Shown here one piece after another: positions 6,928-34,629 of a stretch of 42,792 nucleotides of DNA. The stretch is from NCBI GenBank assembly GCA_026985995.1, contig JALSPJ010000102.1, positions 1-42,792 of the forward strand, written 5' to 3'. The notes beneath the pieces were generated by a model, which was given only the letters and a program-made list of their open reading frames with translations, searched no databases and was not told where the DNA came from. Each line of letters opens with the position of its first letter. Within the stretch, counting starts at the first letter, position 1. A program made the translations under genes and the position numbers. This DNA comes from Anaerolineales bacterium. GTDB lineage: Bacteria; Chloroflexota; Anaerolineae; Anaerolineales; DRMV01.

Positions 6928-7571
6928 CCATTCCCTCCAGCGCCGCCTCACCCCCCTGGCAGTGGGAACCCGACCGCCTGCGCCGCGCGTTGCAGCAAGG
7001 CCAGGCGCGTTTGCCCGCGAGGGTGGACCCTTACGGCCCCGCACTGCCCGCGCCCGGCAAGCCCGCAGCCGTGCTGGTGCCCTTCGTGCCCACGCCGCAG
7101 GGCTGGCAGGTGCTGTTCATCCGCCGGGCCGAACACCCCCACGACCCCCACAGCGGACAGGTCTCCTTCCCCGGCGGCCGGCGCGAGCCCTCGGACCCCG
7201 ACGCGCCGACCACGGCTTTGCGGGAAACCCACGAAGAGGTGGGCCTCCCCCCCACGGCCATTGAGCTGTGGCTGCCCTTGCCCCGCCACCGCACGGCCAG
7301 CAACTATTGGGTGGAACCGTGGGTGGGCCAGGTGCGCGACTGGCCCCGGCCCTTGCGCTTGCAGCCCGCGGAAGTGGCCTGGACCTTCACCGTGCCCCTG
7401 GCCTGGCTGGCCGACCCGCGGCATTTGGAACGCCGCTGGCGGCGGGTGCACGGTGTGTTGGTACCCACCTACTACTTTCACTGGCCCCAGGCGCCCATTT
7501 GGGGCGCTACGGCTCGGGTGGTGGTTTCGCTGCTGAACGCGCTGGGCCTGCTGCACCTGCCGCCGGTGTAG
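6924..7571 (+). CDS. Nudix hydrolase, CoA pyrophosphatase type
   Basis: HSGQVSFPGGRREPSDPDAPTTALRETHEEVGL matches the Nudix box plus the upstream NudL-like signature. The ATG overlaps the trmI stop (ATGA). Confidence 0.85.
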   Translation: MTIPSSAASPPWQWEPDRLRRALQQGQARLPARVDPYGPALPAPGKPAAVLVPFVPTPQGWQVLFIRRAEHPHDPHSGQVSFPGGRREPSDPDAPTTALRETHEEVGLPPTAIELWLPLPRHRTASNYWVEPWVGQVRDWPRPLRLQPAEVAWTFTVPLAWLADPRHLERRWRRVHGVLVPTYYFHWPQAPIWGATARVVVSLLNALGLLHLPPV

Positions 7572-7586
7572 GCCCGCCCGCGGCCT

Positions 7587-8888
7587 TCACAGAAAGCCCA
7601 GCTTTTTGGCCTCGCGCCGCAGGTCGGCCCGAAAATCGGGGTGGGCGATGGCGATGAGGGCCTCGGCCCGCTGGCGGATGGTCTTGCCGTGCAAATAGGC
7701 CACGCCGTATTCGGTGACCACATAGTGCACATCGTTGCGGGTGGTGGTCACCCCCGCGCCCGGCTTCAGGGTGGCCACGATGCGCGAGATGGTTCCCCCT
7801 TTGGCTGTGGAGGGCAGGGCGATGATGGGCTTGCCGCCTTTGCTGCGGGCCGCGCCGCGGATGAAATCCACCTGGCCGCCCACGCCGCTGTAGAATTTGG
7901 GCCCAATGGAATCCGCGCACACCTGCCCCGTCAGGTCCACCTCGATGGCCGAATTGATGGCCACCATGTTGTCGTTTTGGGCGATGACGAAGGGGTCGTT
8001 GACATAATCGGTGGGGTGGAATTCCACCATGGCGTTGTTGTCCACGAAGTCGTACAGACGCTGGGAGCCCAACACAAAGCCGACGATGATTTTGCCCCGG
8101 TGCAGGGTTTTGCGCTCGTTGGTGATGACGCCTTGCTCCACCAGCTCCACCACGCCGTCGGAGAAGAGCTCGGTGTGGATGCCCAAGTCGCGTTTGTCTT
8201 TGAGGTAATAGAGCACCGCGTCGGGGATGCCGCCGATGCCCAGCTGCAGGGTCGCGCCATCGGGGATGAGTTCCGCAATGTGCTGCGCGATGCGCATTTG
8301 CACCTCGCCGGGCTGGCCCTGGGGCAACTCGGGCAGGTTGTAGGAAACGGGCACGAAGGCGTCGATTTTGGACACATGGATGAAGGAATCGCCCAAGGTG
8401 CGGGGCATACGATCGTTGACCTCGGCGATGACCACCCGGGCGGCCTCGGCCGCGGGTTTGGTGATGCCCACTTCCACCCCAAAGGAGCAAAAGCCGTGTT
8501 CGTCGGGGGGCGAGACATGGATGAGGGCCACATCTAAGGGCAGTTCCTGGCGGAACAGGCCCGGCACTTCGCTGAGGAACACGGGCGTGAAATCGGCCCG
8601 GCCCTCGTGCACGGCCTGGCGCACATTGGCGCTGATGAACAGGGTGTTCACCCGCAGCCGGCCTTCCAGGTCGGGGCTCACATATTCCGCGTCGCCCACG
8701 GTGAGCACCTGGACGATTTCCACATTGTCGATTTCCCCGGCCCGGGCCCGCTGCACCAGGGCCTTGAGCACGGTTTGGGGCACCGAACAGTTCCCCGTGA
8801 GGAACACCCGCTGGCCCGAGCGAATGCGTTGCACCGCGTCTTCCGCGGTGGTCATGCGTTGGTGGTAGATGCGCTCCCAGTAGGCCAT
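7587..8888 (-). CDS. Acetyl-CoA hydrolase/transferase family protein (4-hydroxybutyrate/succinyl-CoA:acetate CoA-transferase-like)
   Basis: Family-typical SAIEVDLTGQVCADSIG and GGQVDFIRGA. Start MAYWERIY is preceded by GGGGAGG, 1 nt after the ald stop. Confidence 0.9.
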   Translation of the reverse strand: MAYWERIYHQRMTTAEDAVQRIRSGQRVFLTGNCSVPQTVLKALVQRARAGEIDNVEIVQVLTVGDAEYVSPDLEGRLRVNTLFISANVRQAVHEGRADFTPVFLSEVPGLFRQELPLDVALIHVSPPDEHGFCSFGVEVGITKPAAEAARVVIAEVNDRMPRTLGDSFIHVSKIDAFVPVSYNLPELPQGQPGEVQMRIAQHIAELIPDGATLQLGIGGIPDAVLYYLKDKRDLGIHTELFSDGVVELVEQGVITNERKTLHRGKIIVGFVLGSQRLYDFVDNNAMVEFHPTDYVNDPFVIAQNDNMVAINSAIEVDLTGQVCADSIGPKFYSGVGGQVDFIRGAARSKGGKPIIALPSTAKGGTISRIVATLKPGAGVTTTRNDVHYVVTEYGVAYLHGKTIRQRAEALIAIAHPDFRADLRREAKKLGFL

Positions 8889-10110: not shown

Positions 10111-10563
10111 TCATTCCTCGAAAATCCAGCGGTCCAGGTCTCGCTGCCACTCGACCAATTCTTCGGGGCGGAACCACAGCCCGATTTCGAAGGCCGCGGT
10201 TTCGGGGCCGTCGGACGCGTGGGTGAGGTTGCGCCCGATTTGCAGGCCAAAGTCGTGGCGAATGGTGCCGGGCGCGGCCTCGGTGGGCCGGGTGGCGCCC
10301 ATGGTCTGCCGCACCGCGGCGATGGCGTTGGGGCCTTCCCATACCATGGCCATCACCGGCCCCGAAGTGATGTAGGCGATGAGGCCCTCGTAGAAGGGCT
10401 TTCCTTTGTGCACCGCGTAGTGTTGTTCGGCCAATTCGCGGGAGACCCGCATGAACTTGGCCGCCACCAGGCGCAGGCCGCGGTTTTCGAGCCGGCGAAT
10501 GACTTCGCCAATCAGGCCCCGTTGCACGCCGTCGGGTTTGACCATGACGAAAGTGCGCTCCAT
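10111..10563 (-). CDS. ndk: Nucleoside diphosphate kinase
   Basis: [22 protein letters not shown]...NLTHASD (active-site His). Confidence 0.95.
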
Positions 10564-10577
10564 GAAAACGCCTCCTG

Positions 10578-10606
10578 AAAAAGAAATGGGGCCCCGTTGG
10601 GGGCCC
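10578..10606 (-). terminator. Possible terminator hairpin after the giant repeat gene
   Basis: The minus strand reads GGGCCCCC-AAC-GGGGCCCC (7 bp with one C:C mismatch) followed by ATTTCTTTTT. It abuts the ndk SD. Confidence 0.4.
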
Positions 10607-10627
10607 TTGGATTGTACCCGGGTTGGC

Positions 10628-13600
10628 TCAGCGAAGCAACTCTTCGGCCTTCATGTAGGTGTCCAAGGCGTCTTGCAGCCGTCCGGCTTTGGCAAACGCG
10701 TCGCCCAGGAGTTGCAGCAGCTCCACGCTCATGGGGTAGTAGTACTGGGCCTGCAGCAGGTCCTCGATGACCTCGGTGAGGTATTTGCGCCGACGCACCA
10801 AGCGGCGGTAGTAACGCAGACCGGTTTCCAGCTCGTAACGGGCGATGGCCTCCCGGGCGCGGCGCAGGTCCTCTAAGTAGGGGTCGGCCTCCACCGGCAA
10901 GGGCTTGAGGGGCATGGTTTCCGGCGGCGGGATGTGTTGTTGCGTGGGCACCCACGCCGGTGGGGTGATGTCCACGGCTTCCTCTTCGTCGCTTTCGGTG
11001 ACCTCCTGGACCCACTCCAAGGCTTCTTGCCCCAAGGGGTGGGTTTCGCGCGCCTGGGCCGGGGCTTCGGCTTCGGTCGTGGGGGCCGGTGCTTCGCCGG
11101 TGGTGGCCCACTCCTGCGGTGGGAGCAGCCACTCGGGGGGTTCTTCCTCCACCTGAGGGCGCTTTCGCGACCCGGCTCCGCGGGGTTGGGCCTCCATCCA
11201 GGCCAGGTTGGCGATGGCGTCTTCCAGCGCCTCGGGGGAGGGCGGTGCCATGTCTTCCTCGGCCTCGGGGCCGGGCGGCGCTTCGGTCTTGCCGGGTTCG
11301 GGTTGGGCCTCGGCCGCGGCTTCGGCCAGCCAGTCGGGCAATTCGCCGGCTGCCGCGGCTTCGGCCTCGGCTTCTGGACGAGGTAGCGCCTCGCCCCTAC
11401 CGGGTTCGGGTTCGGGTTCGGGTTCGGCCGTGGGTTCGGACTGGGCTTCGGCCAGCCACTCGGGGAGTTCCGCGGCCTCCGAGGCTTCGGCCTCGGCCTC
11501 TGGGCGAGGCAGCGCTTCGTCCCTACCGGGTTCGGCTTCGGCCGTGGGTTCGGGTTGGGTTTCGGCCGCGGCGGGCGCTTCCGCGGCTTCGCGGAAGGTT
11601 AGCAGCTCCTCGGTCTTGGCCCCCTGCCGCGCGGCCAGCTGTTCCAGCCAGGCCAAGGCCGCCTCTTCATCGCTCAGGGCTTCCAGGGGAATTTCTGCCT
11701 CGGCCGCGGCTTCGGCTTCGGCCTCTGGGCGAGGCAGCGCCTCGCCCCTACCGGGTTCGGGTTCGGCCGTGGGTTCGGGTCGGGTCTCGGCCGCGGCTTC
11801 GGCCAGCCAGTCGGGGAGTTCCGCGGCCTCCGCGGCTTCGGCCGCGGCCTCCGGGCGAGGCAGCGCTTCGCCCCTACCGGGTTCGGGTTCAGCCGTGGGC
11901 TCGGGTTGGGCTTCGGCCGCGGCTTCGGCCAGCCACTCGGGGAGTTCGCCGGCTTCCACGGCTTCGGCCTCGGCCTCCGGGCGAGGCAACGCTTCGCCCC
12001 TACCGGGTTCGGCTTCGGCCCCGGCGGGTTCAGCCTCGGCCGCGGCTTCGGCCAGCCATTCGGGCAATTCGCCAGCGGCCGCGGGCTCGGCTTCGGCTTC
12101 CGGGCGAGGCAACGCCTCGCCCCTACGGGGTTCGGGTTCGGCTTCGGGGCCGGGCGGCGCTTCGGCCGCGGCGGCTTCTTCCGCGGCTTCGCGGAAGGTC
12201 AGCAGCTCCTCGGTCTTGGCGCCCTGCCGCGCGGCCAGCTGCTCCAGCCAGGCCAAGGCCGCCTCTTCGTCGCTCAGGGCCTCCAGGGGGATTTCTGCCT
12301 CGGCCGCGGCTTCGGCTTCGGCCTCTGGGCGAGGCAACGCCTCGCCCCTACCGGCTTCGGCTTCGGCCGTGGGTTCGGACTGGGCTTCGGCCGCGGCTTC
12401 GGCCAGCCAGTCGGGGAGTTCCGCGGCCTCCGCGGGTTCGGCCTCGGCCTCCGGGCGAGGCAACGCCTCGCCCCTACCGGGCGGCGCTTCTGCCCGGCCT
12501 TCGGCCTCGGCGGGCTCTTCCGCGGCTTCGCGGAAGGTCAGCAGCTCCTCGGTCTTGGCGCCCTGCCGCGCGGCCAGCTGCTCCAGCCAGGCCAAGGCCG
12601 CCTCTTCGTCGCTCAGGGCTTCCAGCGGGATTTCCGCCTCGGCCGCGGCTTCGGCCTCAGCCTCTGGGCGAGGCAGCGCTTCGCCCCTACCGGGTTCGGC
12701 CTCGGCCGTGGGTTCGGGTTGGGTCTCGGCCGCGGCTTCGGCCAGCCAGTCGGGGAGTTCCGCGGCCTCCGCGGCTTCGGCCGCGGCCTCTGGGCGAGGC
12801 AGCGCTTCGTCCCTACCGGGTTCGGGTTCGGCCGTGGGTTCGGGTTGGGTCTCGGCCGCGGCTTCGGCCAGCCAGTCGGGGAGTTCCGCGGCCTCCGCGG
12901 CTTCGGCCTCCGGGCGAAGCGGCGCTTCGCCCCTACCGGGTTCGGCCTCGGCGGGCTCTTCCGCGGCTTCGCGGAAGGTCAGCAGTTCTTCGGTCTTGGC
13001 CCCCTGCCGCGCGGCCAGCTGCTCCAGCCAGGCCAAGGCCGCCTCTTCGTCGCTCAGGGCTTCCAGGGGGATTTCCGCCTCGGCCGCGGGCTCGGCTTCG
13101 GCCTCGGGGCGAGGCAGCGCTTCGCCCCTACCGGGTTCGGGTTCGGCCGTGGGTTCGGGTTGGGCCTCGGCCGCGGCTTCGGCCAGCCAGTCGGGGAATT
13201 CGCCGGCTTCCGCGGGTTCGGCTTCGGCTTCTGGGCGAGGCAACGCCTCGCCCCTACCGGCCGTGGGTTCGGCCTCGGCCCCGGCGGGTGCGGCCTCGGC
13301 TGCGGCTTCGGCCAGCCACTCGGGCAATTCGCCGGCGGCCGCGGCTTCGGCCTCGGTCTCCGGGCGAGGCAACGCCTCGCCCCTACGGGGTTCGGGTTCG
13401 GCTTCGGGGCCGGGCGGTGCTTCGGCCGCGGTGGGTTCTTCCGCGGCTTCGCGGAAGGTCAGCAGTTCTTCGGTCTTGGCCCCTTGCCGCGCGGCCAGCT
13501 GTTCCAGCCAGGCCAAGGCCGCATCTTCGTCGCTCAGGGCTTCCAGGGGGATTTCCGCCTCGGCCGCGGCTTCGGCCTCGGCCTCCGGGCGAGGCAACGC

Positions 13601-16264
13601 CTCGCCCCTACCGGGCGGCGCTTCTGCCCGGCCTTCGGCCGCGGCGGCTTCTTCCGCGGCTTCGCGGAAGGTCAGCAGTTCTTCGGTCTTGGCACCCTGG
13701 CGGGCGGCCAGCTGCTCCAGCCAGGCCAGGGCCGCATCTTCGTCGCTCAGGGCTTCCAGGGGGATTTCTGCCTCGGCCGCGACTTCAGCCTCGGCTTCTG
13801 GGCGAGGCAGCGCTTCGCCCCTACCGGGTTCGGGTTCGGCCGTGGGTTCGGACTGGGCTTCGGCCGCGGCTTCGGCCAGCCACTCGGGGAGTTCACCGGC
13901 TGCCGCGGCTTCGGCTTCGGCCTCTGGGCGAGGCAGCGCTTCGCCCCTACCAGGTTCGGGTTCGGCCGTGGGTTCGGGTCGGGCTTCGGCCGCGGCTTCG
14001 GCCAGCCAGTCGGGCAATTCGCCGGCTTCCACGGCTTCGGCTTCGGCCTCTGGGCGAGGCAGCGCCTCGCCCCTACCGGGTTCGGGTTCGGCTTCGGGGC
14101 CGGGCGGTGCTTCGGCCGCGGTGGGCTCTTCCGCGGCTTCGCGGAAAGTCAGCAGTTCTTCGGTTTTGGCCCCCTGCCGCGCGGCCAGCTGCTCCAGCCA
14201 GGCTAAGGCCGCATCTTCATCGCTCAGGGCTTCCAGGGGGATTTCTGCCTCAGCCGCAGGTTCGGCTTCGGCCTCGGCTTCTGGGCGAGGCAGCGCCTCG
14301 CCCCTACCGGGTTCGGGTTCGGCCGTGGGTTCGGGTTGGGCTTCGGCCGCGGCTTCGGCCAGCCAGTCGGGCAATTCGCCAGCGGCCGCGGCTTCGGCTT
14401 CGGCCTCTGGGCGAGGCAGCGCCTCGCCCCTACCGGCTTCGGCTTCGGCCGTGGGTTCGGACTGGGCTTCAGCCGCGGCTTCAGCCAGCCACTCGGGGAG
14501 TTCGCCGGCTGCCGCGGCTTCGGCCTCCGGGCGAAGCGGCGCTTCGCCCCTACCGGCTTCGGCCTTGGTGGGCTCTTCCGCGGCTTCGCGGAAGGTCAGC
14601 AGCTCCTCGGTCTTGGCACCCTGGCGGGCGGCCAGCTGCTCCAGCCAGGCCAAGGCCGCCTCTTCGTCGCTTAGGGCTTCCAGGGGGATTTCTGCCTCGG
14701 CCGCAGGTTCGGCTTCGGCTTCTGGGCGAGGCAGCGCCTCGCCCCTACGGGGTTCGGGTTCGGCCGTGGGTTCGGACTGGGCTTCGGCCGCGGCTTCGGC
14801 CAGCCACTCGGGCAATTCGCCGGCTTCCGCGGGTTCGGCCTCGGCTTCTGGGCGAGGCAGCGCTTCGCCCCTACGGGGTTCGGGTTCGGCTTCTTCGACC
14901 GCGGCCGCGAGCCAATCGGGGAGCCCGGTTTCTTCCACGGGCGCGGCGGCTTCTTCCATCGGCGTGCTTTCCAGCCAGGTGGCCAGGTCTTCTAACGCGC
15001 TCTCTGCGTCGCCCTCGGGAAGCCAATCCGCGGTCCCCGCGGGCCCCTCTTCGGCTTCTGCCGCAGGCTCGGCCGCGGTTTCCGCTTCGGCCGCGGCTTG
15101 CTGGGCGCGCAGGGCTTGCAGCCACTCGGGAATTTCGCCCTCGACCAGCTCGGCTTCTTCTTCCTCCTCGGCCTCATCCCCGACCGGGGCCTGGGCTGCT
15201 GCGGCGTCTAAGGGAACGGACGGGTCGCGCGGCGCCCAGCCGCTCTTCTGCATCCACTCGGGGATGAGCTCCTCGGCCTGCTCGGGAGGAACATAAGGGC
15301 CACTCTCGGCCGATGTTTCCTCGGCCTCGGCCGTTTCTACCGCCTCGCTGAGGGCGAAAATTTCGTCCTCGGGTGGGCCGGTGTCCTCTTCCTCGTCCAG
15401 CAGGCCCGTTTGCCGGGCCACGGCTTCCAGTTCCTCCAGCATGGGCATTTCGGCCTCGTCGGGCGCGGGCAGGGCATCTAAGTCGCTGGTGAACTCCATC
15501 TCCAGCCGCGGGATGCGCACCTTTTCGGCCGGAACCTGCTCCGCGGTGGGGAATTCGTTGCCGACGAAGGCCTCGTAGGGGTCCAGCTCCAACACCCGGG
15601 ACCAGTATTGCTGGGCTTCTTCCTCCCGGCCCTGACGCCGCAGGATGGCGGCCATGATGCGGTTGGCCTGCAGACAGTAGGGCAGTTTTTGCAGCAGGCG
15701 CTGGGCTGTGTCGATGGCTCGCGCCCATTGCTGGGCCTCGAAGTACGCCTGGGCCAGCAGGGCCTGGGCGTCCAGGCGGCGCGGGTCTTGCTGCAGCACG
15801 GCCTGCAATTCGATGATGCTTTGGTTGTACAGTCCACTTTGCAGATAGACGCGCGCCAGAGCCACCCGGGTGAAACGAATACGCGGCGGGGCAACGCCAT
15901 CCCGCTCCCGATACAGGCGGCGCAGTTCCTCCTGGATGGCGACATGGGTGGGCTGGGCCTCGAACGCGCGCTCCATGTGCCAGATGGCCGCGTCCAGGTT
16001 GCCCTCTTCTTCGCGGATGGTGGCCATGCCGAAATGGGCCAAAAAATCGTCGGGCACAGCCGACAGCACCCGTTGGAAGAGGTCCGCGGCCTCGGGAAAA
16101 CGCCGGTTGCTGAGGTAGATTTCCCCCAGCACCCGATAGACAGGCAGATATTTGGGGTAATGGCGCAGGATGTGCCGGGCGTGCAGAATCGCCTCTTCGT
16201 AGCGCTCGTCCTGCACCATTTCTACAATTTGTTGCAGATAAGTGCGCAAACCGATTTCGTTCAT
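10628..16264 (-). CDS. Giant (1878 aa) TPR-flanked, highly acidic modular repeat protein
   Basis: N-terminal TPR region (about 290 aa) and a C-terminal TPR-like region are joined in one frame by an Ala/Glu/Pro-rich array. The ATG at 16264 begins [14 protein letters not shown]; the track ORF starts 29 codons upstream. Confidence 0.85.
11290..14893 (-). repeat. In-frame tandem array: 23 H modules ([14 protein letters not shown]) followed by 15 W units (ELP[ED][17 protein letters not shown]) or 8 B units ([11 protein letters not shown][ED][29 protein letters not shown])
   Basis: Counted by hand on the DNA. Each H module contains the 21-nt palindrome GGGCGAGGC-nnn-GCCTCGCCC (example 11727-11747). 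First copy at 11376-11396, last at 14850-14870. Units are near-identical at DNA level. Confidence 0.9.
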
Positions 16265-16308
16265 GGTCGTGCCTCGCCGCGCGCCGAAATGCGGGTGAAC
16301 CTGGCAAT

Positions 16309-16337
16309 AGTATATCAACAATCCACAACCTTGTCCA
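16309..16337 (-). promoter_or_regulatory. Putative sigma-70-type promoter of the giant gene (TGGACA-17-TATACT)
   Basis: On the minus strand the -35 TGGACA is at 16337-16332, followed by a 17-nt spacer and the -10 TATACT at 16314-16309. This lies about 45 nt upstream of the ATG. Confidence 0.5.
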
Positions 16338-16369
16338 TGACCCGCGACCATATAAGAGGAAGTCGCGGC

Positions 16370-16846
16370 CTACCCATCGTCGCCTGCGCCTCGGGAGGAA
16401 GGCCCTTGGGGAGGACGCGCGCTGGGCGGCGCGTACAGGGGAAGCAGGTCCTCTAAATCGGGATGCCGCGCCAGCATGGCCCGCACCAGGCGCAGCAAAT
16501 GCTCCCGGGGCCAGCGGGCCAGGCTTTGCCGGTAAACCGACGCCGGCCGGAACTGCCCGGGGTGGGCCAGCCAGTGCAGCAGCACCGCGGCCACATGCTT
16601 GCAGCGCCCATCTCGGCCTGCGGGGCAGGTGCACCAGGCCTCGCCGATGCCCGCGGGCGTCAGGCGCACTTCCACCCGGTAAGGCTCACGCGCCTGGCCC
16701 TGGCACCAGGCTTTGAGGCGCCAGCCCTCCCGCCGGGGGTGCAGCACCCGCCCCTGGCGCTGATACCACTGCCCCCGTTTGAACGCGTTGGGGCCCACCC
16801 ATTGCTGCACCGCGCGCGCGTCCAACGACGGTTCCACCGAGGACAT
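16370..16846 (-). CDS. SWIM zinc-finger protein
   Basis: CTCPAGRDGRCKHVAAVLLH matches the CxC..CxH SWIM signature. GGAGG lies 8 nt before the ATG at 16846, and a TACAAT lies at 16881-16876 on the minus strand. Confidence 0.8.
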   Translation of the reverse strand: MSSVEPSLDARAVQQWVGPNAFKRGQWYQRQGRVLHPRREGWRLKAWCQGQAREPYRVEVRLTPAGIGEAWCTCPAGRDGRCKHVAAVLLHWLAHPGQFRPASVYRQSLARWPREHLLRLVRAMLARHPDLEDLLPLYAPPSARPPQGPSSRGAGDDG

Positions 16847-32586: not shown

Positions 32587-34629
32587 ATGGCCAAAAGCAG
32601 CGAAGTCTTGCTGGCTTTCAACGAACTCACCCAAACTCGCGAACTGCCCCCCGAACGCATCCTCGACGCGCTCCGGGACGCGCTCATCGCGGCCTATCGC
32701 AAGGTGCACAACGCGCCCGCCTCCCAACAAGTCGAGGTGGAATTCGACCTGCCCAACGGGCGCATCACCCTGCTGGTGGAAAAAGAAGTGGTGGACGAAG
32801 TGCGCGACCCGCGCACCGAAATCTCCCTTGAGCAGGCGCGCCGCTTTCGCCCCGATGCCCAGGTGGGCGACATCGTCATGGTGCCCATGGACCCGTCCAC
32901 CTTTGGGCGCATCGCCGCGCAGGTCAGCCGCCAGGTCATCAAACAGCGCCTGCAAGACGCCGAGCGGCAAATGCAATATGAATACTACAGCCAGCTCAAG
33001 GGCGAAATCGTCCACGGCATCGTGCAGGCCATCAACGCCCACGAAGTGGTGGTCGGGCTCGACAAGCGCGCCGAAGGGCACCTGCTCAAAAAGGAACAAA
33101 TCCCCGGCGAGCGTTTTCAGGTGCACGACCGGGTGCGGGCCCTGCTTTTGGATGTGGAAAAGACCACCCGCGGGCCCTACATCATCCTCTCCCGCGCGCA
33201 TCCCAACTTCCTGCGGCGCTTGCTGGAGGAAGAAGTACCCGAAATCCACCGGGGGGAAGTGGAAATTCGCGCCGTGGCCCGAGAAGCCGGTCGGCGCTCC
33301 AAAGTGGCCGTGTCGGCCATCGCGCCCAACATCGACCCCGTGGGCGCGTGCGTGGGCATTCGCGGCTCCCGCATCCAAACCATCATGCGCGAGCTGCACA
33401 ACGAGAAAATCGATGTCATCCAGTGGGACCCCAACCCCGCGGTGTTCATCGCCAAGGCCCTGAGCCCGGCCCGGGTGCTGGGCGTTTACCTGCAGGAAGG
33501 GGAAGGGCCCCGCACCGCGGTGGTGGTGGTGCCCGAAGACCAGCTCAGCCTGGCCATTGGTCGGGAAGGGCAAAATGTGCGCCTGGCGGCCAAACTCACC
33601 CGCTGGCGCATCGACATCAAGAGCCTCAGCGAAGCAGCCCAGGACGCGCTGAGCAAACTGTATCGGGACGAGGCCTTCGCCCCCCTGCTGGAGGCCGAAC
33701 ACGACACCCTGGAGCAGGTGGAGGCCATCTTAGAGAAGAAACAGGCCGGCCGGCCCCTGACCCCCGAGGAATACAACTTCCTCTTCCAGTTCGTGGACCG
33801 GGTGGAGCGGGGCATGTTGGCCGAGCTGCGGGCCCGCCGGGAAGCCGAAGTCGCGGCCCTGGCCGAGCTGCGCCGCGGCATTCCCGAGGCCGCGTTCGAA
33901 ACGCCCCTGGACGAGCTGGGCCTCTCCCCGCGGCTCATCATCAGCCTTACCGAAGCCGGCTACCACAGCGTGGGCGACCTCATCATGGCCCTGCGGCAGG
34001 ACCCGGACGCCATTCTGGCCCTGCAAGGCGTGGGGCCGCGCACCATGGAAGCCCTGCAGCAGGCGGTGGAAGCCTACCTGGCCGAGCATGCGGCCGAAAT
34101 CGAAGCCGAAGCCGCGGCCGAGGCCGAGGAAGAAGCCGCGCCGGGCCCCGAAGAGACCGAAGCCGCAGCCGAACCCCAGGCCGAAGCGCCCCAGGCCGTG
34201 GAAGCCACCGCAGCCGAGCCGGTCTCGGGCGAAGCCCTTCCCCCTGACGAAGCCCCCGAGGCCGAACCCGAGGCCGTGCCCGTGCCCGAGCCCAGCGTGG
34301 CGGACCTCATCGTGGCCGAAGCCGAGCCTTTGCCCCCGGCCCCCGAGGCCGAAGCCGAACCCGAACCCCGGAGGGGCGAAGCGTTGCCTCGCCCAGAAGC
34401 CGAGGCCGAAGCGCCTTCCCTGGAAGAGCTCTTCTCCACCGAGCGGGTGCTGGGCACGCCCGAAAGCGCGCTGCTGACCGAAGCCGACGAGGAAGAAGAG
34501 GCCGCGGAGCCCGAGCCGCCCAAGAAGAAGAAAAAGAAGAAGCGCAAGAAGCGCGGCCCCCGCTACCGCGACCTGGAAGACGACGACGAGTACTTCGGGG
34601 GCCGACGCCGCGGCGATTGGGATTGGTAA
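32587..34629 (+). CDS. nusA: Transcription termination/antitermination factor NusA with a long acidic C-terminal extension
   Basis: NusA N-terminal domain, S1 (GEIVHGIVQ), KH1/KH2 (EIRAVAREAGRRSKVAV...GACVGIRGSRIQ...LAIGREGQNVRLA), a helix-hairpin-helix region, and then a roughly 180-aa Ala/Glu/Pro tail ending KKKKKKKRKKRG...RRRGDWDW. Confidence 0.93.
   Translation: MAKSSEVLLAFNELTQTRELPPERILDALRDALIAAYRKVHNAPASQQVEVEFDLPNGRITLLVEKEVVDEVRDPRTEISLEQARRFRPDAQVGDIVMVPMDPSTFGRIAAQVSRQVIKQRLQDAERQMQYEYYSQLKGEIVHGIVQAINAHEVVVGLDKRAEGHLLKKEQIPGERFQVHDRVRALLLDVEKTTRGPYIILSRAHPNFLRRLLEEEVPEIHRGEVEIRAVAREAGRRSKVAVSAIAPNIDPVGACVGIRGSRIQTIMRELHNEKIDVIQWDPNPAVFIAKALSPARVLGVYLQEGEGPRTAVVVVPEDQLSLAIGREGQNVRLAAKLTRWRIDIKSLSEAAQDALSKLYRDEAFAPLLEAEHDTLEQVEAILEKKQAGRPLTPEEYNFLFQFVDRVERGMLAELRARREAEVAALAELRRGIPEAAFETPLDELGLSPRLIISLTEAGYHSVGDLIMALRQDPDAILALQGVGPRTMEALQQAVEAYLAEHAAEIEAEAAAEAEEEAAPGPEETEAAAEPQAEAPQAVEATAAEPVSGEALPPDEAPEAEPEAVPVPEPSVADLIVAEAEPLPPAPEAEAEPEPRRGEALPRPEAEAEAPSLEELFSTERVLGTPESALLTEADEEEEAAEPEPPKKKKKKKRKKRGPRYRDLEDDDEYFGGRRRGDWDW
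34351..34410 (+). repeat. In-frame copy of the H module of the giant-gene array inside the nusA tail
   Basis: 58/60 nt identical to the reverse complement of 14834-14893. Encodes [20 protein letters not shown] in both genes. Palindrome at 34374-34394. Confidence 0.9.

Follow-up and report, generated by a model that had tools for sequence, protein, structure and literature searches.

A GTAG-tagged REP-like hairpin amplified in frame within a tandem-repeat protein gene of an Anaerolineales bacterium, and a possible template-switch origin of a paired change in its stem

The window analyzed was the whole 42,792-nucleotide (nt) contig JALSPJ010000102.1 (contig C102 of assembly GCA_026985995.1) of an Anaerolineales bacterium, whose genome (G000) is a 2.35-Mb bin of 67% GC that is split into 281 contigs and is 94% complete. 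Positions 10628 to 16351 of its minus strand are occupied by an open reading frame (ORF) of 1907 amino acids (aa) for a repeat protein, in which TPR blocks at the N- and C-termini enclose an acidic Ala/Glu/Pro array of 23 modules. An orthologue of this protein is kept across the order. The array measures 3.6 kb, and its units, 126 or 213 nt long, are 85-90% identical to each other. Every module opens with a peptide encoded by a palindromic element, and this peptide, GRGEALPRP, is followed by either a short unit (ELP[ED]WLAEAAAEA...) or a long unit. The palindrome of 21 nt, and a paired change found in two of its copies, are the subject of this work.

On the coding strand a module starts as (G/C)GT AGG GGC GAR GCG YTG CCT CGC CC, which corresponds to GTAG followed by GGGCGARGC-GYT-GCCTCGCCC. 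The GTAG head was present in all 23 copies of the gene, written either as GGT AGG or as CGT AGG, and the general form of the element was GTAG + GGGCGARGC + 3 nt + GCYTCGCCC. The 23 in-frame palindromes were located between positions 11372 and 14875 of the minus strand, and their 25-mer was identical to intergenic copies dispersed in related genomes. The palindrome occurred far above chance, with 35 matches recorded against 0.04 expected. Based on these features, the 21-nt palindrome was recognized as the stem-loop of a 25-nt GTAG-tagged element resembling a repetitive extragenic palindrome (REP), composed of the GTAG tag, a GC-rich stem of 9 bp and a loop of 3 nt.

The 23 copies were grouped by stem position 7, the third base of a Glu codon. 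The GAG codon was found in 12 copies, of which 11 formed a perfect 9-bp stem and one, at 11376, was degenerate. Nine copies combined GAA with an unchanged CCT codon in the opposite arm, leaving an A.C mismatch on the coding (GTAG) strand and a G.T mismatch on the plus strand. They lie on the minus strand within 11502 to 14870, their plus-strand 21-mers starting at 11502, 11853, 11979, 12666, 12792, 13107, 13800, 13926 and 14850; the copies at 11502 and 12792 additionally carry GAC. The original prediction had counted nine uncompensated GAA copies, and this number was exact within the gene; a tenth such copy was found in nusA, at 34374-34394. The remaining two copies combined GAA with CTT and had a perfect stem. 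Only transitions were seen within the element, at 7 of its 21 positions.

The two GAA copies with CTT are situated at 12912-12936 and 14529-14553 of the minus strand (25-mers). The plus strand at 12912-12932 and 14529-14549 reads GGGCGAAGCGGCGCTTCGCCC, that is, GGGCGAAGC-GGC-GCTTCGCCC, as had been predicted, and the encoded peptide is changed from ALP to APL. The coding strand at this place is GGC GAA GCG CCG CTT CGC CC, and the affected residues are 600 and 1139 of the 1907-aa ORF. The first copy can be written as GTAGGGGCGAAGCG-C-CGCTTCGCCC, a perfect palindrome of two 10-nt arms around one central base, and the second copy has the same 25-mer. In the first copy the changed bases of the plus strand are 12918 (G to A; coding C15->T, Pro to Leu) and 12921 (A to G; coding T12->C, Leu to Pro), and in the second copy they are 14535 and 14538. 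The facts stated in the original prediction were thereby all confirmed.

The two APL copies were found to be the closest paralogues of each other. When the element itself was masked, their flanks were identical at 123 of 140 sites, compared with no more than 90 of 140 at any other ungapped placement. Both copies were contained in an ungapped pair of blocks of ~620 nt, ~90% identical and offset by 1617 nt, extending over 12645-13265 and 14262-14882 of the minus strand. The first block consists of a REP with a long unit, the APL-bearing REP with a short unit, and the next REP. A single origin of both APL copies, in one event followed by duplication of the block, is thus well supported, and the suspicion of one event expressed in the original prediction was borne out. 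It follows that there is no statistical power for a covariation analysis inside the gene.

The palindrome is not private to the repeat protein. The source genome contained 239 GTAGGGGCG heads, compared with 87 for the reversed control; 23 of the heads were in the gene, and the other 216 were spread over 86 contigs. A hairpin of 7-11 bp with no more than one mismatch followed 164 of these 216 heads. The dispersed hairpins were mostly intergenic; a period-3 GC signal, as shown by coding DNA, was missing from the flanks of the heads, where the median was 0.125 compared with 0.35 for the whole genome. The stem families of the dispersed hairpins included GGGCGACC..GGTCGCCC, GGGCGCAGC-GT-GCTGCGCCC and GGGCGCAC-GGCG-GTGCGCCC, and the families differed from one another by complementary changes of the stem, for example GCAGC/GCTGC and GCGGC/GCCGC. 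In this genome, the stem family of the repeat gene was confined to that gene and to a single copy in nusA.

It was also observed that the dispersed hairpins of the source genome belonged to at least three stem families and often stood as head-to-tail pairs of two families, 30 nt apart, in repeat units of ~180 nt. An example is seen on the minus strand of contig C225 at 7375-7720.

In the relatives, the exact 25-mer of the gene, GTAGGGGCGAGGCGCTGCCTCGCCC, was a dispersed repeat in contexts that did not look coding. Eight copies lay outside the gene in a genome of the same genus (G002), and 22, 13 and 20 copies were present in three genomes of the same family (G009, G012 and G013, respectively). 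The 25-mer was dispersed in metagenome-assembled genomes (MAGs) of Leptolinea, Aggregatilineales and Thermomicrobium as well. Further, 185,579 species genomes were scanned for the stem pattern, with any base allowed at positions 7 and 15 and at two positions of the loop. At least 141 matches were obtained, being a mixture of chance matches and real elements; 95 of the matches listed were Watson-Crick paired at positions 7 and 15, and the paired ones among those listed nearly all had a GTA prefix.

In the Thermomicrobium sp. MAG (G045; loci L117 and L122), 36 copies of the same GTAG element, with its GAGGC stem, were present, mostly in arrays with a spacing of 220-270 nt. GTAG-23 of Thermomicrobium roseum has been described as 'clustered in large blocks'. 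The layout of the arrays, compared by description alone, fits this account.

A transposase of the kind associated with REPs and flanked by them (REP-associated tyrosine transposase, RAYT; PF01797, Y1_Tnp) was looked for in two genomes, and no PF01797 match was detected in the source genome, at its completeness of 94%, or in G002. Genes with Y1_Tnp were present in 27 of 41 relatives. The one such gene that was inspected, in G009, had no GTAGGGGCG head within ~1.5 kb. REP families with no obvious transposase are known from published surveys (PMC3733652). In addition, many relatives contained ORFs of ~500-630 aa with a C-terminal Y1_Tnp match at 42-60 bits, far longer than transposases of the IS200 type or RAYTs; these were seen in G018 (C102:1632-3230 in the coordinates of locus L164), G021, G007, G010, G020, G015, G008 and G039.

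The covariation of the stem pair 7:15, proposed as a check in the original prediction, was assessed with 34 distinct 25-mers taken from the gene, from nusA and from dispersed copies of other genomes. The other stem positions had been held fixed in the retrieval pattern, and only pair 7:15 could vary. The pair was GC in 19 sequences, AU in 5, CG in 2, GU in 1 and UG in 1, and 6 sequences were unpaired, four of them being the A.C forms of the gene and of nusA. In no case out of 500 shuffles were as many double changes obtained as had been observed. Sub-types with an A:T pair were found in G028 and G043 besides the distant Anaerolineae MAG G041, discussed below. Among the dispersed copies the hairpin is clearly under constraint, and their propagation presumably depends on it. 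The covariation was strong across the family. It did not extend into the gene, where position 7 varied as any Glu wobble site does and where the constraint is relaxed, the copies being multiplied by module duplication.

The relaxation was evident from several comparisons. The ratio of GAG to GAA at stem position 7 was 12:11, and the neighboring Glu wobble sites gave 7/23, 11/23 and 4/23. The wobble sites of the REP showed no clear difference from those of the flanks, much variation being seen only at Glu GAR codons and at one Pro site. The GAG->GAA change has spread freely in the gene, since pairing is not visibly constrained there.

The orthologue of G002 led to similar conclusions: of its 11 homologous segments, about half had lost both the GTAG head and the palindrome; one decayed segment reads GGT CGG GGC GAG GCG CCG TCC CGC GGC. 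Head and stem seem to have been lost together. It was noted at the same locus (L021, G002:C74) that the intact segments, of the form GGT AGG ... TTG CCT CGC, kept the GTAG head as well as the palindrome, and that the decayed segments had the forms GGT/GGC CGG or CAG ... CCG TCC / GTG TCT / GAG TCC CGC GGC.

Among the orthologues compared, the GRGEALPRP segment was present only in the source genome and in G002. The orthologues of G003 and G005 and the proteins P0003-P0007 kept the ELPEWL and AALAWLE.LAAKQGA..EELLT units and lacked the segment. A protein search returned six homologues, and GRGEALPRP was found in none of them but the G002 orthologue. A scan of metagenome contigs for the REP with its coding flank gave one match, a dispersed intergenic copy, and no further carrier within a gene. 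Judging from these sequences, the REP-encoded peptide appears dispensable. Since it is absent from the other orthologues, the change of ALP to APL, previously regarded as the price paid for keeping the stem intact, probably costs next to nothing. Altogether, there was no evidence in the gene of selection on pairing or on the exact peptide. Nor did the gene show the signs of a functional RNA hairpin under compensatory selection: 9 of the 11 GAA copies were unpaired, compensation had occurred in one event only, the stem had been lost in G002 segments, and no known RNA family (Rfam) was found on either strand of 10400-16600.

The paired change was then considered as a whole. On the coding strand the GAA-type ancestor is GGGCGAAGC-GCT-GCCTCGCCC and the variant is GGGCGAAGCG-C-CGCTTCGCCC. 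The ancestral state at the two codons is given by YTG (CTA in one case) and CCT, which were found in the other 21 copies of the gene, in nusA, and in the palindrome-bearing in-gene copies and the dispersed copies of G002. The two changes, T12->C and C15->T, are on one side of the palindrome and 3 nt apart, and positions 12-21 of the variant are the exact reverse complement of positions 1-10. An imperfect inverted repeat existed beforehand, as nine copies of the gene are still quasi-palindromes of the GAA type. No copy with just one of the two changes was found among 24.

The change at position 12 matches position 10 across one central base, a pair that is impossible in a real hairpin. With or without the loop change, the predicted fold had the same energy, -17.4 kcal/mol for RNA and -11.3 kcal/mol for DNA. 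The original prediction had treated the loop change as an unrelated event; taken together with C15->T it equals a copy of the opposite arm, with no gain in stability. Therefore, selection for a stable stem accounts for one of the changes, and the other would have to be coincidental. If at least four bases were copied from the complementary arm, both changes are accounted for at once.

We propose the following sequence of events. A copy of the REP lies in frame in the Ala/Glu/Pro linker of the TPR repeat protein and was amplified together with the modules to 23 copies. In one copy of the GAA type, coding positions 12-15 may have been rewritten while DNA was being synthesized, by a short template switch of the quasi-palindrome kind. 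The nascent strand would have briefly copied the complementary arm, so that the rewritten tract became the reverse complement of positions 7-10 (AGCG to CGCT); in the first APL copy the putative template is 12923-12926 of the plus strand. Both T12->C (Leu to Pro) and C15->T (Pro to Leu) could thus have arisen in one event. As the rewritten tract extends to the center, which position 12 adjoins, a switch across the fork, between molecules, would be preferred over a nascent strand folding back on itself. The block of ~0.6 kb holding the new copy was later duplicated 1617 nt away, in agreement with the paralogous flanks.

Template switching at quasi-palindromes is an established class of mutation (PMC5453318), and it has been reported to produce multibase compensatory changes of stems in one event (PMC8794818). 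An extension of the identity between the arms is described for quasi-palindrome mutations in another account (PMC3820800). We consider that the paired change was most likely mutational rather than selective in origin. For the specific scheme, namely a template switch in a captured in-gene REP with later block duplication, requiring neither selection on the hairpin nor a benefit to the protein, we would allow about an even chance. Of the two possibilities named in the original prediction, selection or a mechanistic constraint on the hairpin, the mechanistic one was better supported; for the selective one no sign was seen in the gene, given the 12:11 wobble ratio, the nine unpaired GAA copies and the decay in G002.

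Several points weigh against the template switch. Compensation regains 4.4 kcal/mol (RNA) or 4.0 kcal/mol (DNA) on the coding strand. There was one event only, so the argument is one of parsimony, noticed after the fact. The dispersed copies keep positions 7 and 15 complementary, and hairpin-dependent selection somewhere in the life cycle of the family could in principle act here. Loops that are palindromic up to the center were not enriched among the dispersed sub-types, at about 13 of 44 genome-by-loop sub-types by a hand count, compared with 25% for random loops; thus there is no general drive to such palindromes. Two dispersed copies of a 25-mer identical to the variant were found in the distant MAG G041, which leaves room for a donor. 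Finally, the array comes from a MAG assembled in short contigs.

Two narrower ideas were tried and rejected. An association of A:T stem sub-types with perfect-center loops, by a hand count 3 of 5 against ~30% of the G:C sub-types, was not significant. Short-patch conversion from nearby linkers of the form GAA GCG CCG CCC (AEAPP) could supply the CCG codon; it explains only T12->C and not C15->T.

The alternative that survives best assumes two or three independent point mutations. In this case G->A weakened a functional hairpin of the mRNA or of single-stranded DNA, C->T was fixed by selection in spite of the replacement of Pro by Leu, and the loop change was a separate event. Such a course would agree with the family-wide covariation of pair 7:15, with the nearly constant pairing of dispersed copies in relatives, and with the folding energy regained. 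It is hard to reconcile with the uncompensated state of 9 of the 11 GAA copies and of the copy in nusA, with the free variation of position 7, and with the loss of the palindrome from in-gene copies of G002. It also requires an additional, unexplained non-synonymous change 3 nt away that completes the palindrome and contributes nothing to its stability. Moreover, a hairpin at this place in the coding sequence has no known function, there was no Rfam match, and no Y1_Tnp/RAYT gene was found in the source genome. This course was judged unlikely.

Chance is another candidate explanation, with two independent neutral transitions having fallen at positions 12 and 15, in a dispensable linker and before the block duplication. 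The purely transitional variation over 7 of 21 positions and the lack of conservation of the peptide are in line with it, and the pattern was picked after the fact out of a large window. Starting from the GAA ancestor, a perfect 10-1-10 palindrome results from only 4 of the 210 double transitions (a 2% tail) and from 4 of the 1890 double substitutions, whilst 6 of the 210 double transitions lead to a perfect 9-bp stem. These proportions, together with the missing single-change intermediate, make coincidence quite improbable.

A pre-existing REP sub-type, GTAGGGGCGAAGCGCCGCTTCGCCC, might instead have overwritten the in-gene copy by short-patch ectopic conversion or by replacement of the REP. 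Exchanges of this kind have evidently taken place in the lineage. A patch of 60 nt at 34351-34410 (plus strand), in the acidic C-terminal tail of nusA (32587-34629, plus strand; Pfam domains NusA_N, S1 and KH_5), was identical at 58 of 60 positions to 14834-14893 in the first module of the repeat gene, which is 20 kb away and on the opposite strand. It contains the uncompensated GAA copy mentioned above, with the head of the REP mutated to GGAG. The patch was absent from NusA of three genomes of the same genus (G001, G002 and G003), which have an unrelated acidic segment at this place, and it is therefore regarded as a recent ectopic transfer. The identical 25-mer of G041 and the A:T sub-types of G028 and G043 could likewise speak for a donor. 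However, no sequence of the GAAGCGCCGCTTC / GTAGGGGCGAAGCGCCGCTTCGCCC type with up to four mismatches was found outside contig C102 in the 94%-complete genome, and none was found in 22 genomes of the same family. The reading frame and the flanks are untouched, and the usable homology would be ~25 nt only, which leaves a donor very improbable.

The prospect that the array was mis-assembled, or that a hairpin-induced error of the polymerase or the assembler made the variant and placed it twice, is remote: an array of such similar units in a MAG of 281 contigs invites this suspicion, and polymerases switch templates at hairpins in vitro too, but the flanks of the two copies differ at ~10% of the sites, and hence they are distinct loci in the assembly, and the frame is open over 1907 codons.

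If the template-switch origin holds, one 'compensatory' pair is no evidence of selection on structure, since a single switch can write both changes, and the change in the loop is what gives it away. More generally, a palindrome met in repetitive coding DNA may be a mobile hairpin that was captured there, its form owing nothing to the protein or the mRNA. A more far-reaching idea, to which we assign little probability, is that the in-gene REPs are active: their hairpins would drive the expansion and shuffling of modules, seed ectopic transfers such as the patch in nusA, and renew themselves by arm-templated repair. If this were true, new stem sub-types (G:C to A:T) would be born inside coding sequence and read out as peptide variants.

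The separate ingredients of this case, namely intragenic REPs, complementary stem sub-families and compensation by template switching, have all been published, and none of them is new on its own. GTAG-tagged REPs are palindromic units of 20-40 nt characterized by a 5' GTAG (or GTRG) tag, a GC-rich stem of 6-13 bp and a loop of 2-3 nt (Di Nocera, De Gregorio & Rocco 2013, BMC Genomics 14:522, PMC3733652; Nunvar et al. 2010, PMC2817692). They occur in hundreds of copies that are mostly intergenic and often grouped, Chloroflexi are among their carriers, and sub-families with complementary stems have been described; intragenic members are translated as short inserts, and clusters encoding 43-82 aa have been reported (PMC3733652). 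The element studied here agrees with them in the tag next to a GC-rich stem, the short loop, the high dispersed copy number and the complementary sub-families. It differs in that its stem family is found in the source genome only inside genes, and in that it is integral to every tandem module of a protein, the 23 copies having arisen by module duplication and not by separate insertions. Neither the source genome nor G002 yielded a RAYT/Y1_Tnp gene, and the dispersed pairs are arranged head-to-tail, an arrangement termed rare in PMC3733652.

The paired change itself resembles template-switch mutations (the Ripley model; Loytynoja & Goldman 2017, PMC5453318; Monttinen & Loytynoja 2022, PMC8794818) in the imperfect inverted repeat, in the clustering of substitutions in one arm, in the fact that every change makes that arm the exact reverse complement of the other, and in the apparent simultaneous compensation in one event. 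Those studies dealt with rRNA and other RNA genes, with human genomes, and with bacterial and yeast reporters, whereas here the stem is part of a translated REP and the switch would be read out as an adjacent swap of Leu-Pro to Pro-Leu; the case for it is drawn from one event. The Rickettsia palindromic elements (RPEs), cited in PMC3733652, provide a further parallel, being selfish palindromic repeats tolerated in frame as an extra peptide in otherwise conserved proteins. RPEs have a greater length and different tag families (CGTC for RPE-4/6), and each is inserted singly, in many genes, in contrast to the one amplified array described here. The unusual feature of the present locus, which is not a new phenomenon, is a REP amplified 23-fold as the fixed linker of a protein repeat.

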